A stretch of 64,000 nt of DNA from Octopus vulgaris. Lineage: Eukaryota. Of this stretch, positions 23,949-48,673 are shown piece after piece; position 1 is the stretch's first letter; every line of letters starts with the position of its first letter. A program made the translations under genes and the position numbers. The stretch is taken from positions 8,928,001 to 8,992,000 of the forward strand of contig OX597822.1 in assembly GCA_951406725.2 (NCBI GenBank), in the 5' to 3' direction. The notes beneath the pieces are model-generated. The model was not told the DNA's origin, searched no databases, and worked only from the letters and a program-made list of their open reading frames with translations.

Positions 23949-24173
23949 ATGTGAAGTATATTTGCCACTTAAATGTGGCTAACTACTAAGGGTGGATTAT
24001 ACTGTAGCTTGTAGCCCAAGGAGAACATCTTCTCCAGCTGGCTATTGGCTATTGACACACTTTCTGTCAATAGCCAATAGCCAGCTGGAGAAGTTGTTCT
24101 CCTTGGGCTACAAGCTACAGTATAATCCACCCTTAGTGGTTAGCTAGATTTAAGTGGCAAATATCCTTCACAT
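23949..24173. repeat. Long fold-back repeat: ~109-bp arms, 7-nt loop
   Basis: 23949-24057 is the near-exact reverse complement of 24065-24173. Confidence 0.95.
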
Positions 24174-42452: not shown

Positions 42453-45164
42453 TTACTGTACAGAAGACCTACACTATACGTATAATGTGTACAACCATTT
42501 GGAGAACAGGCAGTTCGTTTTAGCTTAGGATATAGAGATAAAGAAAACAACTTTCATCTCTGTCCATGTTGGAAATTTCTTACTACGTTATTGAAACTGC
42601 AGAACACTGAAGAATACGCTTGGCCGCATTTACTTACATCGTTGTACATTCCAATAATTAAAATATTAATGCTAGCTACTAATGTAGCATAAATTGAGTT
42701 TTAATAATTATTATAAAAATTACGTTATATATTTCTATAGTATTGCAGTCATGAAGGAAATTTTACGATTGGCATTTTTTGAAATTTACATACAGGTGCA
42801 AAATTTTTACTATTTTCCTGCTTATATTGGACTGATGTCTATCATAGACTTATGTCTATCCGATTATTCTGCCAGTGTTCGATTATGTTCCTAAACCTTT
42901 AACAAATTTTACAACACATTCTTCTTTACATATCAAAGGTAAAACATACACCTGTATTTAAATACATTGTCGCAGTGGACGGAGTATATTAACTGCCCCT
43001 CCCCTCATAGCTGGTGATTCTAAAAAAAGAAACCATAAGCGCGCACAGGCATAGAATGGTCGTGACAGTAAGTTGAACACGCAAACACCAAATGTTATGG
43101 AGAAGCAATGCTTGGGAAGAGATGGAAATAATGAGAGAGAGGGAGAGAGTGGAGTGGATGGTGTTTGTGTATGTGACAATAGGGGAAAAATCAGAACGGA
43201 AAACGGATTTGAAAGAAGAGGGAAAAGAGAAGGGGTGCAAATAAGCGGAAAAGAACTGAAAGTCCCAGATTGACCGAGAGAGGAAGGATAAAGAAGACAA
43301 CGAAAGATATAAGAAATATAACTACAAAATATAGGAGATAAAAAGAGAGAGAGAGAGAGAAACATATAGACAGACAAGGAGGAAGGAAGGGAAACACTAG
43401 AAGCAACAAAGCTTTCAACGAGTCGCAGTAATGAAGGTAAAATACTTAAAGACAAAGGGGAGATAATCATTTTACATGAACGAAAGGAGACAGGAAGATG
43501 GACATACACAAAATCAATATATATTTGTGTGTGTGTATGAGAGAGAGAGATAGAGAGAGAGAGAAAGAGAGAGAGAGTAGGAGTTTGTGTATGGTCATCT
43601 TCCCCTCTCCTTTTGTTTTTGTACAACAATTACCTTTCCTTTCTCTTCATTCTACCCGCCTGTCTGTTATGAGCATATATGCGTGTGTAGGTGTGTATAT
43701 GTTCGAAATTAATTCAATATTCCTCAGGCAATTGTCTTAGAAATAATATAAATACTATATATGATGTGTCGGTAATAGACTATACATTCAATTTCGCTTC
43801 ATATTTATCAGTGAAACGTCTTAAAACTAATACAGTCATGTCAACACTGTGTGAATAATACATTAGGCTTTCGCTTTTGTTCTATAGTTAAGGAACCGTT
43901 TACTTAAATCGTTAAGTACGTACACTGTCGCAGGATAATATTACAGACTATTTTATGTATTTTATATTACTATTGCATCATTATAAGCGTGTCATCTATG
44001 CTAATTTATCTTATAATTTATAAATACGCATCATCAGTAAAATTGCAATGTAGTACACACGGGTTACATCATAAGTTATTTGTCAGTTGATTTGAAATAC
44101 TTGAATTATATCCTGAAATGTTTCGTTAGAATGATGCAGTGAGAAACAAATTACTGAAATTACCTATGGTGTTTGATTTGACATGAACTATGAGTGGACG
44201 AATTAAATATTAATTTCCACATCACGAGCAGTGTAACAAAATTGGGAGAGCGGGTACGATTCATAATAGGGCCCCCAGTATTTAAATGGTACAGTGATGT
44301 TTTGACCGAATCCCAGGAAGTAGGAGAGGCTGAGCTCACCATACCAAGACTCGAAATTTCAAAAAAAAAAATAAAAGCAAATGTAGATAAAGAAGCATAT
44401 TTTTTTATGAAGCGTTAAATAGGGAGAGATAGATCTTCCAGCTGCTAGTAAGTCAACCAATCAAAAGCAACTTTTCAGAGAGCTAGGATCAAACATAGCA
44501 ATCTATGCTAATAGAAAATTGTTGAGTTTAACGGAACTGTCAATTGTTACAACATTTTACTTTTTGAGTCACATTATACATACCTATGGTTGGAAAGATC
44601 GACTGAGACCTGGGAAACTACGTTTTCTAGTCATTAATACAATGCTGGTACGCTGGATCTGAATGAAACCCGAAATCTTCTGGAAAATATACGATAAATT
44701 ATCAGTTCTTGAATTCTATCGATCACGGCAGTTTTATTGACATTTCCGGAAGACAAAACACATGTAAATTGACATTTCCATGTTGTAAACCACATGTTTA
44801 AGACATGCTAACAATCAATAATAATTTGACTGGCTATCAGCCAACTTTTCTACAATGTCCGCTCTCGGTTTACAGAAATAAAGGGTAGACTGGATAATGT
44901 ATTCATAGAAATATTAAACCTGAAAAAAGATGACATAGTTACGGCTACATTGCTTTTCACCATACGTGTACGTCATTAGGGATAACCTGGGCTAATCAAC
45001 AAAAACATACCTAGGTCTTTTGAAAGTACTTTAGCTTCAACATCTAGATATAACACAGGTCATGTCCTCTTTGACAATATACTTTATTTTGAAATCTAAG
45101 AACGTTTTCAATGACATTATCAACATTATTCAGTTCTATATCTGAGAGATGAGGAATTATGTAC

Positions 45165-45418
45165 GTTATTTTACATTATTTACATTTGACGGGTATTTGT
45201 CCTCATTTTGTTTGTTGTTAACACAGCGTTTCGGCTAAAATACTCTCCAGCCTTCATCGGGTGTCTTTGAGAAATTTCGAACCTGGGTTCTCATTCCTAA
45301 GGTATTTTTCGATGTTATTATTATCACTATTATTGTTATTATTACTATTATTCAGGTCACTGCCAGGAATCGAACTCGGAATCATGGGGTCAGTAGCCCA
45401 CGCTCTACTACTATGCCC
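45165..45418 (-). mobile_element. Left arm of palindromic element: tRNA-like head + (AAT)n + hammerhead-containing body (mutated HHR at 45220-45265)
   Basis: Minus strand gggcatag...GAGTTCGATTCC...gtgacctgaataa, (AAT)n, catcgaaaaataccttag...GACAC CCGATGA A GGCTG..TAGCC GAAACGCT GTGTT. Confidence 0.8.
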
Positions 45419-45420
45419 GT

Positions 45421-45499
45421 GGGCATATGGCATAGTGGTTAAGAGACCGGGCTACCAGCCCAAGATTCCGATTTCGATTCCAGGCAGTGACCTGAATAA
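45421..45499 (+). mobile_element. Right-arm tRNA-like head of the palindromic element
   Basis: A box TGGCATAGTGG and B-box-like GATTTCGATTCC; reverse complement of 45348-45418. Confidence 0.8.
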
Positions 45500-45509
45500 A
45501 AATATTTTT

Positions 45510-45737
45510 ATTCTTTACTTGTTTCAATCATTTGACTGCGGCCATGCTGGGGCACCACATTTTAGTCGAGGAAGTCGACCCCCAGGAATTATTCTTTGTA
45601 AGCCTAGTACTTACTCTATCGGTCACCTTTTGCCGAACCGCAAAGTTACGGGGATGTAAAGACACCAGCATCGGTTTATCAAACGATGCTGGGTGACAAA
45701 TACAGACACACAAACATACACACATGCACACACAAAG

Positions 45738-45812
<75 letters not shown>

Positions 45813-45961
45813 ACAAGATTCTTTCAGTTTCCATCTACCAAATCCACTCACAAGGCTTTGAACGACCCGAGGCTATAGTAGAAGACACTTGCCCAAGGGA
45901 CTGAAACCAGAACCATGTGGTTGGTAAGCAAGCTATTTAGCACAGAGCCACTTCTGCGCCC
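45510..45961 (-). mobile_element. SINE family A (nested insertion)
   Basis: Colinear with the other family A copies. Confidence 0.88.
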
Positions 45962-46021
<60 letters not shown>

Positions 46022-46022
<1 letters not shown>

Positions 46023-47413
46023 TTATGGCTAACATAAATTTGTTGGCCATAAATTCGTTAGCAGTACCAGTTGTTCTTTATAGCTTCAATGTGCTTAACT
46101 GGAATACCAGTGAAATAATGCAAATTGACAGAAACATCCAGAAGCTACTGACTTGTAATAAGATGCACCATCCAAAGGCAGACGTGGATCGCCTTTACCT
46201 TCCCAGAGCTCAGGGAGGTCGAGGTTTGATCCAGCTTGAACTTACAAACAAAACCACCACAATAGGACTGGCCAAATACCTTGAAGTAACCGACGTTTGG
46301 ATGCTAAAACTTGTTGAAAAGCATGAAAGTCTGAAAAAGACTTCACTCTATTCTCAAAGAGAGCAAAAAATTCGCTGCTGATCTCTTAGATACCCACCAG
46401 ATTGATCAGGCTGAAGGAAATGCGCCAACTGCAGCTGCAAAGAAAATAAAATTAATTGCAAAGACAAAAACACATGAAAATTTAGCTAGCAGATAGGAAC
46501 AGAAACCTCTCCATGGCAAGTATGTGGCCCGTAGCAAGCAAGCTGATGTCTACCAGAAATACACGCACCAATGGTTACGAAGCTCCGGGCTAAAAGCAGA
46601 GAGTGAAGGTTTCATATTAGCTGCTCAAAGCCAAAGCTTATTAACCCGGAACTACCATGCCAATGTGATAAAAAATGGAGCTGATCCAAAATGCCGATTC
46701 TACAACGATGAGATTGAAACAATAGACCACCTAATCTCAAGGTGTAAAGTCTTAGCACCTGCAGAATATAAAGCAAGACATGACAGAGTCGGCCAGTATT
46801 TACATTGGACAATATGTCGGCATTATAAAAACCAAAACCGTTGAAAAATGGTATAAACACCATCCTGAAGCTGTGACTGGGGGAGAAAATGTGTCGATTC
46901 TATGGGACTTCCCCGTACAGACCGACAAGACTATAAAAGCTAATAAACCGGATATTATTATAAAAGATCAGACAAAAAATATATGTTTATTAATTGACAT
47001 GAGTATCCCTTGCGATCACAATATAGCAGCTAAAGAATTTGACAAGATTAGTAAATATAAAGACCTGCTAATAGAAAAAATCTCAAGGCGACTACAGTAC
47101 CAGTGATTGTAGGATCTCTAGGAATGATAAATAAAAAGGTACTGAAACCTATTTTAAACTGATTCCAGGCTTACCATCCCCACAGGAAGTGCAAAAAATC
47201 GTATTAACTGGAACGGTTCATGTACTGAGAAGAGCATTATCGCTGTGAAAACAACATCCGTCCATGAATTTATTTATTTATTAATTCTTAAATACATATT
47301 TCATCTGTGAATTTGCGTGTATAATCTGGGAATGCATACAATGAGCTTCTCTGTCCTAGGTGTATAAAAAGCACTCGGCGAGAAAAGGAAGAAAATTTGA
47401 AGAAGGAAAAAAC
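46022..47413 (+). mobile_element. 5'-truncated R4/Dong-like LINE (RT C-terminus, zinc knuckle, REL endonuclease, 3' UTR), frameshifted
   Basis: AINSLAVPVVLYSF..HPKADVDRLYLPRAQGGRGL; AESEGFILAAQ..KCRFY..ETIDHLISRC..RHDRV; WDFPVQTD..ANKPDIII..LLIDMSIP..KISKYKDL; (TAA)n on both sides. Confidence 0.92.
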
Positions 47414-47501
<88 letters not shown>

Positions 47502-47533
47502 TAATTATAATAATGATAATGATAATAATAATA

Positions 47534-47609
<76 letters not shown>

Positions 47610-47611
<2 letters not shown>

Positions 47612-47758
47612 TCGAAAAATACCTTAGCAAAGAGAACCCAGGTCCGAAATTTCCCCAAGACACCTGATGAAGGCTGAAAGGTATATCAGCCGAAACGTTG
47701 TGTTAACAACAAACAAGATGAGGACAAATATCTGTCAAATGTAAATAATGTAAATAAC
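47610..47758 (+). mobile_element. Right-arm body of the palindromic tRNA-head/hammerhead element
   Basis: Reverse complement of 45165-45314. Confidence 0.85.
47659..47704 (+). ncRNA. Minimal type I hammerhead ribozyme motif
   Basis: Stem I GACAC/GTGTT; core CTGATGA plus one extra A; stem II GGCTG(A)/(T)CAGCC; GAAA; self-complementary AACGTT in place of stem III; GUU triplet with predicted cut after 47699. Confidence 0.8.
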
Positions 47759-48552: not shown

Positions 48553-48667
48553 ATTTATTATATAGAAGGAGCTTCTACAGGACTAGTACTGTTTCATTCA
48601 AGAGAAATCTTCCTGAAGATTTCTCTTGAATGAAACAGTACTAGTCCTGTAAAGCTCCTTCTATATA

Positions 48668-48673
<6 letters not shown>
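48553..48673. repeat. Near-perfect 60-bp-arm fold-back between (TA)n tracts
   Basis: 48553-48612 is the reverse complement of 48615-48673 with one indel; 2-nt spacer. Confidence 0.95.

Follow-up and report, generated by a model that had tools for sequence, protein, structure and literature searches.

In the 64,000-nt window of the Octopus vulgaris genome analyzed here (assembly GCA_951406725.2, contig OX597822.1, positions 8,928,001 to 8,992,000; coordinates below are those of the window), two copies of a short repeat lie head to head around a 2-nt centre, each combining a transfer RNA (tRNA)-derived head, an (AAT)n spacer and a body with a minimal type I hammerhead motif. This unit is almost certainly the pseudo-long terminal repeat (pLTR) of an autonomous Penelope/Poseidon-type element, the copy at the locus being a fossil. 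The left arm, on the minus strand, comprises a head with an intact B box and a 7-nt deletion through the A box (45352..45418), the spacer (45315..45351), and the pLTR body (45163..45314), which holds the ATG of the element's open reading frame (ORF) at 45294-45292, in a frame that is read through in the family copies L214 and L236. The body is followed by a Penelope 'tail' of about 30 nt (45132..45162, minus), found on this arm only, from which full-length copies continue into the ORF. On the plus strand, the right head (45421..45495) has an intact A box and a G53 to T change in the B box at 45472, and the right body (47610..47757), in which the ORF ATG is mutated at 47630-47632, ends without a tail. 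The fold-back junction (45412..45428) is a perfect palindrome with a 2-nt loop (45419-45420) and coincides with the hot spot of 5' ends in the family. As initially annotated, the right hammerhead (47659..47704, plus) has an intact core with a predicted cut after 47699, and the core of the left one (45220..45265, minus) is broken by U4C at 45259 and U16.1C at 45226.

Alignment of the left arm (minus) within the window by blastn gave 161 identities over 179 aligned positions with the right body (47580-47758; E 3e-67) and 63 over 74 with the right head (45429-45504; E 1.5e-14). Together with the sequence itself, these matches bear out the two head-to-head arms, the 2-nt centre, the minimal hammerhead and the insertion of two other elements into (AAT)n, all of which had been described in the initial annotation. 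The left arm that it placed from 45165 is real but extends 33 nt further, to 45132, and the two A/B-box heads that it reported are tRNA-derived, as judged by a tRNA-Arg match, although neither head of the locus keeps both boxes intact.

The right arm is interrupted within its spacer by an unrelated, abundant tRNA-headed short interspersed element (SINE; 45506..45962, minus), of which six further copies occur in the window, by an (AAT)20 run (45962..46022, plus), and by the 5'-truncated and frameshifted 3' end of a long interspersed element (LINE; 46023..47413, plus), delimited from its translation. The (AAT)n/(GAT)n stretch that follows (47414..47609, plus) contains the remainder of the right spacer and the LINE end. 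The LINE, which we take from its motifs to be R4/Dong-like, gave a weak zf-RVT match below the cut-off (E 5e-4). Pieces of related LINEs also sit in the (AAT)n of the family copies L309 and L313, so that the spacer is a recurring insertion target, which explains the 2.1-kb interruption; the SINE and the LINE entered it later than the palindrome was formed. A run of five T at 45505, beside the right head, and one of four T (T4) at 45240, inside stem II of the left hammerhead, would stop RNA polymerase III (Pol III) in the right and left arm, respectively. The bodies of the two arms have diverged from the family majority by 7% and 4%. No private variant was common to both arms (12 left, 6 right), such sharing having been sought as proof of fold-back copying, and no target-site duplication (TSD) beyond a chance 5-mer surrounds the whole insertion. 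ARAGORN found no tRNA in the window. Both arms are mutated fossils, and the window copy is an ordinary fossil of its family.

The evidence that the unit is a pLTR comes from other copies in the 2.8-Gb genome, from which all family counts and samples were taken. In these copies, the order is ORF stop, 29 nt, head, (AAT)n, ATG, hammerhead, tail, and ORF, the 29 nt being counted to the first tRNA-equivalent base of the head. The ORF opens at an ATG about 20 nt after (AAT)n and its frame continues through the hammerhead and tail, the predicted ribozyme cut lying 70 nt into it. A decayed ORF end stood directly upstream of the head in four of the 30 best left-arm loci, and a search with the ORF end returned 2738 first-look candidates, as against 410 in a search with the 5' part of the reverse transcriptase (RT) region and 339 in one with the ORF start region; 28 of the 30 endonuclease-region loci fetched carry the head and/or body downstream. 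Likewise, ORF starts were preceded by a same-strand pLTR piece in 26 of 30 cases, by inverted pieces only in one and by none in three. Copies L072, L068, and L091 are near-full elements, L240 is a partial tandem, and L214 and L219 begin at the head and continue into the ORF, as a head-started read-through RNA would. The pLTR unit was also recovered from sequencing runs carrying five organism labels, and each of the five has contigs that join the ORF end to the head. In six copies (L217, L221, L225, L230, L232, and L242), 215-410 nt from the ORF start run straight into a pLTR piece; they are internal deletions or template jumps and could form short non-autonomous derivatives.

The majority ORF is a 784-codon open frame over its aligned part, to which the copies average 94.3% identity (97 segments). 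The family ORF matched RVT_1 above the cut-off (E 1.8e-8 and 2.8e-10), and its C-terminal part resembles GIY-YIG clusters in Atlas (score 0.97, with 10 of 10 named matches in the same family); searches of the C-terminal stretch against PDB and NCBIfam returned nothing relevant. The full-length relatives P0002-P0004 align across both the RT and GIY-YIG domains, and no Cys-rich linker between the RT and endonuclease (EN) is visible in the alignment with relatives. Residues of an 847-aa relative from another source match across the hammerhead codons, its ribozyme being predicted from the protein only. The label 'Poseidon type' is tentative, being based on domain order and sequence motifs. These results do not uphold the view in the initial annotation of a separate, non-autonomous SINE/retrozyme hybrid, since the unit is the pLTR of an element with RT and GIY-YIG domains and no diagnostic positions set it apart.

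The family is large. An exact hammerhead 24-mer occurred 4224 times and an exact head 22-mer 2931 times (none for either reversed control), and, as the 24-mer was present in 16 of 115 arms not chosen by pattern, about 30,000 hammerhead-bearing arms are estimated, with a wide error. Head and body were both spanned in 40 of 40 scored left-arm matches, which were the best matches and hence a biased set. In a position-ordered, head-anchored sample, the body lay downstream of the head in 24 of 30 arms, which bears out across the genome the linkage of head and hammerhead body seen in the window; the remaining six run into (AAT)n, where two of them hold a LINE related to that of the window.

Insertions were examined in 90 position-ordered loci less three duplicates (L098, L109, and L115), that is, 87 independent insertions. 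An inverted partner was present in 56 of the 87, and the tail was found on exactly one arm in 44 of the 50 two-armed insertions, as expected from the inversion by Penelope machinery previously suggested. Two heads stood back to back in only 12 of the 87, and the back-to-back palindrome, formerly taken as the unit of the element, is one common outcome of Penelope insertion; the palindrome and one-sided tail at the locus are accordingly ordinary features of such insertions. Head-to-tail tandems were few and short (e.g., L112, L116, and L168), and long head-to-tail monomer arrays of the retrozyme type were not seen among the 87 insertions. Two main 3' ends bound the tail (loose ends 1167 and 1203/1212 of L053, in reads and contigs). 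Besides, the ORF-linked copies carry a 5-bp mini-palindrome with a 2-nt loop at the head start, and a fold-back at this point yields exactly the centre of the locus. The fold-back junction is also a main loose end in other runs (position 1458 of L053) and is among the best supported, across the five organism labels. Altogether, it is very probable that the centre of the locus arose by fold-back.

The 5' ends of the longest arms of the 87 insertions fell in the body (15), in (AAT)n (18), inside the head (10), at positions -10 to +5 relative to the head start (28), or further upstream (16). Thus, 28 of the 44 insertions reaching the head start end there, compared with 4% expected from the truncation rate within the head (p 3e-28), and most copies look like short, head-started insertions. 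In four cases (L094, L099, L127, and L150, all at -16) the alignments run onto the inverted partner, and these were kept among the 16 ORF-side ends, which makes the 28 of 44 conservative. The ends peak at -6 and +1, with 40 of 71 arms at -7 to +4, and 20 of the 30 head-anchored arms, five of which overlap the first sample, start at -6 to +6. Type 2 Pol III promoters are expected to start transcription about 13 nt upstream of the A box, and counting 13 nt back from the A box of the head leads to a purine at -5.

The head itself matched two host tRNA-Arg genes with 49 identities in 73 nt (score 63.5, compared with a shuffled maximum of 40.5; 0/1000), tRNA-Arg being the best match among only eight anticodon classes, for six amino acids, that were recovered from the host. 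In the majority head, T8 (A box) and G53-A58 (B box) stand at their exact tRNA numbering and both boxes are intact, as judged by the A/B box consensus, while the acceptor and T stems no longer pair. Rfam recovered the head of the arms as a weak tRNA match only (14.3 bits, E 6.1). Processing by RNase P was considered as the origin of the +1 ends and ruled out by inspection, the acceptor stem of the majority head being unpaired. The head of the inserted SINE (45880-45962, minus) resembles that of the Penelope-like element (PLE), with a score of 48.5 over a shuffled maximum of 40.5, a likeness that may reflect a common tRNA source or the descent of the cassette from a SINE. Among more distant relatives, ARAGORN found tRNA heads in none of 11 metagenome loci (including two duplicate pairs and many short sequences), which are too few and fragmentary to delimit the spread of the tRNA head. 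Minimal-hammerhead patterns occurred in several of these relatives (L275, L276, L277/278, L280, and L282), and L282 has one loose A/B pattern located away from its hammerheads.

The hammerhead of the family majority and of the right arm shows the conserved core, helices I and II, and the palindrome that replaces helix III, as proposed for a Penelope-type minimal motif. Helix I has 5 bp and helix II 6-7 bp, with an extra base between 9 and 10.1, a G10.1-C11.1 pair and palindromic 15.2-16.2. Rfam scans of the window and both arms returned no hammerhead family, only sub-threshold noise. The two motifs of the locus lie on opposite strands, which rules out a hammerhead dimer formed in cis from its palindrome, and an unconstrained cofold of the hammerhead pair gave no active dimer fold and was uninformative. 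Cleavage by the motif is predicted to require dimer formation or the help of protein, and the motif is probably not needed for insertion. A subfamily is marked by linked variants (p 1e-15) at two positions of the body, 59 and 128, and one of them is hammerhead position 7, which changes Asp to Glu in the overlapping frame. In addition, a 9-nt unit of variable copy number occurs in the family at body positions 129-150 (window 45163-45185); as its length is divisible by three, the ORF frame running through the pLTR is preserved.

The T4 content of the element is also relevant to a Pol III origin of its RNA. The majority ORF (2383 nt) has no T4, where 2.7-3.8 would be expected under three codon nulls (P 0.038, 0.029, and 0.016), no T4 site is common to 10% of the copies along the ORF (103 segments), and the majority pLTR is likewise free of T4. 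In a second PLE family of the genome (L284-L288), 5-27 T4 occur per ORF, matching its own null.

Taken together, these observations are best explained by a locus that is a decayed, 5'-truncated head-to-head pLTR insertion, in which the tRNA-derived A/B-box cassette of the pLTR is likely a Pol III promoter, a reading that we consider probable. Judging from the sequence, it is somewhat likely that the head is used as such a promoter. Any intact pLTR would then be transcribed by Pol III from a start about 13 nt ahead of its A box, and the transcript would read through (AAT)n, the hammerhead and the tail. The RT/GIY-YIG protein of the element would bind this short RNA, recognizing the tail and ORF start, and would nick AT-rich DNA, the cDNA beginning at one of the two internal sites that bound the tail. 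At the 5' end of the RNA, the cDNA would fold back on the 5-bp mini-palindrome or jump templates, giving the inverted second arm. The pLTR would in this way spread mostly alone, in the fashion of a SINE, yet stay part of the autonomous element rather than form a separate lineage. The mRNA of the ORF could be made by read-through, by RNA polymerase II (Pol II), or by Pol III over the T4-free ORF. In the last case, the whole 2.7-kb coding element would be transcribed by Pol III from the upstream pLTR, with an ORF purged of T4 and an uncapped RNA translated from the ATG after the (AAT)n leader, while the same promoter would make the short SINE-like pLTR RNA; this stronger version seems unlikely.

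Several observations weigh against these proposals. The 5' ends accumulate just where the mini-palindrome lies, and a defined end does not identify the polymerase. Neither RNA starts nor RNA ends at the head start or hammerhead cut were found in one raw RNA run, apparently unstranded; in this run (organism B), mates were divided almost equally by strand (4581 vs 4718), and the depth profile could reflect host-gene read-through. The absence of T4 is only nominally significant, the strand contains little T (22%), and individual copies have acquired T4 by mutation (three in L245; mean 0.36 per kb). Both boxes are intact in 56 of 115 heads and the hammerhead core in 49 of 115 arms. The covariation in the stems for which the initial annotation had called did not appear: among 284 bodies, each stem pair showed 0-2 double changes, for the most part decay of the CpG type, a result that is expected of neutrally decaying copies and neither supports nor refutes the hammerhead fold. 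Finally, Pfam gave no GIY-YIG match on the family's own C-terminal stretches and only sub-cut-off matches on relatives.

The same pattern could arise if the tRNA cassette were a passenger, derived from an old SINE head that had been caught in the 3' untranslated region of an element transcribed by Pol II as other Penelope elements are, with 5' ends piling up because a Pol II start or the cDNA fold-back at the mini-palindrome happens to coincide with this point. Protein-coding RNA normally requires Pol II capping, which speaks for this possibility, as do the resemblance of the PLE head to that of the abundant window SINE and the lack of an RNA start in the one RNA run. Moreover, Pol II-type promoters and 5' palindromes are reported for the pLTRs of other PLEs in the sections available to us (PMC8557442; PMC3846280). 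We nevertheless regard the passenger origin as doubtful, because a 5-bp palindrome with a 2-nt loop seems weak for halting about two thirds of the cDNAs in mid-template, and several head-started copies (e.g., L293, L305, L312, L315, and L318) have no inverted partner. The 5' ends, furthermore, bracket the position 13 nt before the A box, the majority boxes remain intact despite unpaired acceptor and T stems, and about 2.7 kb of the majority sequence is free of T4.

A highly improbable explanation is that the unit constitutes a non-autonomous SINE/retrozyme family in its own right, propagated from master copies of its own by means of Penelope enzymes. Head-started insertions do outnumber ORF-linked ones (28-32 vs 12-16 of 87), solo copies with intact boxes could act as masters, and A at position 7 is commoner in head-started arms (18/67 vs 4/51; p 0.009), a hint of a sub-lineage. 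Against this, the whole unit is collinear with the pLTR of the autonomous element, and no diagnostic position distinguishes head-started from ORF-linked arms (80 vs 65 arms; the best p of 0.002 compares with a corrected threshold of 0.0002); the lack of a class difference at 239 positions after correction argues against a separate SINE lineage. The divergence of head-started arms (5.4% vs 7.1%) was not used, as the two sets were selected differently. Long tandem arrays among the 87 insertions and signs of circular RNA in the RNA run were both lacking; none of the joints listed for that run, whose library is unsuited to circles, was a back-joint at the hammerhead cut.

Three features make the octopus element an EN+ PLE: the domains of its ORF, pLTRs with the ORF start, and an inverted partner with a one-sided tail. 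According to the parts of the literature accessible to us, EN+ Penelope/Poseidon PLEs also have a single ORF with RT and C-terminal GIY-YIG and a pLTR containing the ORF start (PMC11167929; PMC3846280; PMC8557442), and share with it a hammerhead overlapping the first codons, 5' truncation, an inverted 5' partner, a one-armed tail of 30-40 nt and palindromic inverted junctions. Inverted 5' partners and one-sided tails are known in PLEs from the portions consulted of PMC8557442, and palindromic inverted junctions, with self-priming proposed and palindromes at pLTR 5' ends, from those on rotifer (Adineta) Penelopes (PMC3846280). In the anole Poseidon PAc, the accessible text traces the tail to two internal RT start sites in vitro, and describes a hammerhead that again lies over the first codons, cleaves only with protein and can be dispensed with for in vitro insertion (PMC11167929). 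The octopus motif, for which cleavage is only predicted here, matches in all essentials the minimal type I hammerheads of PLE pLTRs as far as these are set out in the excerpts of PMC4209133. In contrast to these EN+ PLEs, the octopus pLTR has at its start an A/B-box cassette of tRNA origin and an (AAT)n spacer, whereas the pLTR promoters described for other PLEs are of the Pol II type (TATA/initiator, with an intron), and the consulted portions of two papers mention no tRNA in pLTRs (PMC3846280; PMC8557442).

The combination of a Pol III promoter with a hammerhead is as such already known. As summarized in part of PMC6765202, the schistosome Sm-alpha/Sj-alpha repeats resemble the octopus pLTR in being short and placing a hammerhead downstream of a Pol III-type promoter, and they are tandem, non-coding, and released from multimers by the ribozyme; the octopus unit is instead the terminal repeat of a coding PLE, inserts head to head and is not bounded by the ribozyme cut. 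Terminal repeats of the TRIMp3 elements Cassandra, Helenus, and Ajax likewise contain a Pol III promoter derived from a small RNA; in the passages available, these are non-autonomous LTR elements with a primer-binding site, a polypurine tract and TSDs of 4-5 bp (PMC10886601), while the octopus promoter sits in an autonomous PLE. Metazoan non-LTR retrozymes have hammerhead units related to PLE pLTRs and are thought to use PLE enzymes; they are defined by head-to-tail arrays and circular RNA, and neither text, in the parts at hand, mentions Pol III or a tRNA head (PMC7229834; bioRxiv 10.64898/2026.07.22.740005). The octopus unit differs from them in its few short tandems and head-to-head locus, and by the tandem-array criterion its pLTR is not a retrozyme. 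The pLTR would work like a tRNA SINE as regards its head boxes and head-started copies, but it fails on independence. Three families of octopus tRNA-derived SINEs were reportedly described by Ohshima and Okada in 1994, of which OR1 and OR2 are said to be of arginine-tRNA origin, and the octopus pLTR could conceivably have been catalogued as one of the three. OR1 and OR2 are cited as CORE-SINEs in the accessible portions of two further papers (PMC4824008; PMC4758252). No description of a tRNA- or Pol III-headed pLTR in an autonomous PLE was found in the open-access literature, although repeat-database entries or supplements may hold the family. The unusual part of the element is the tRNA-derived promoter sequence at the start of its pLTR.

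Other repeats were noted in passing. The second PLE-like family (L284-L288, e.g., G000:C8:57974500-57981000) is young and T-rich on its coding strand; its open frames span 760-1214 aa and show DKG and YIDD motifs, and a word resembling the hammerhead core recurs on the opposite strand at a distance of about 4.5 kb. An open frame of 636 aa with the RT motif of another retroelement lies 4 kb upstream of a family copy (L061:610-2517, minus). Within the window, positions 48558-48668 form a near-perfect fold-back with arms of about 54 bp and a 2-nt loop, adjoining a (TA)n run and including a hammerhead-core-like word at 48613, possibly the stub of another fold-back element. A further near-perfect hairpin with 36-bp arms (24016-24106) matched only a sub-threshold microRNA model.

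SINEs are normally separate parasites of LINEs. A coding PLE with a tRNA promoter at the start of its pLTR would show how a SINE-like repeat can arise directly from an autonomous element, and schistosome-type repeats that pair a Pol III promoter with a hammerhead may have originated in this way. If full-length transcription by Pol III were true, an autonomous retroelement would be its own SINE and would have a rare Pol III-made mRNA. Moreover, its sharp and mappable 5' end may serve as a natural test case for the proposal that head-to-head PLE palindromes originate by self-priming.

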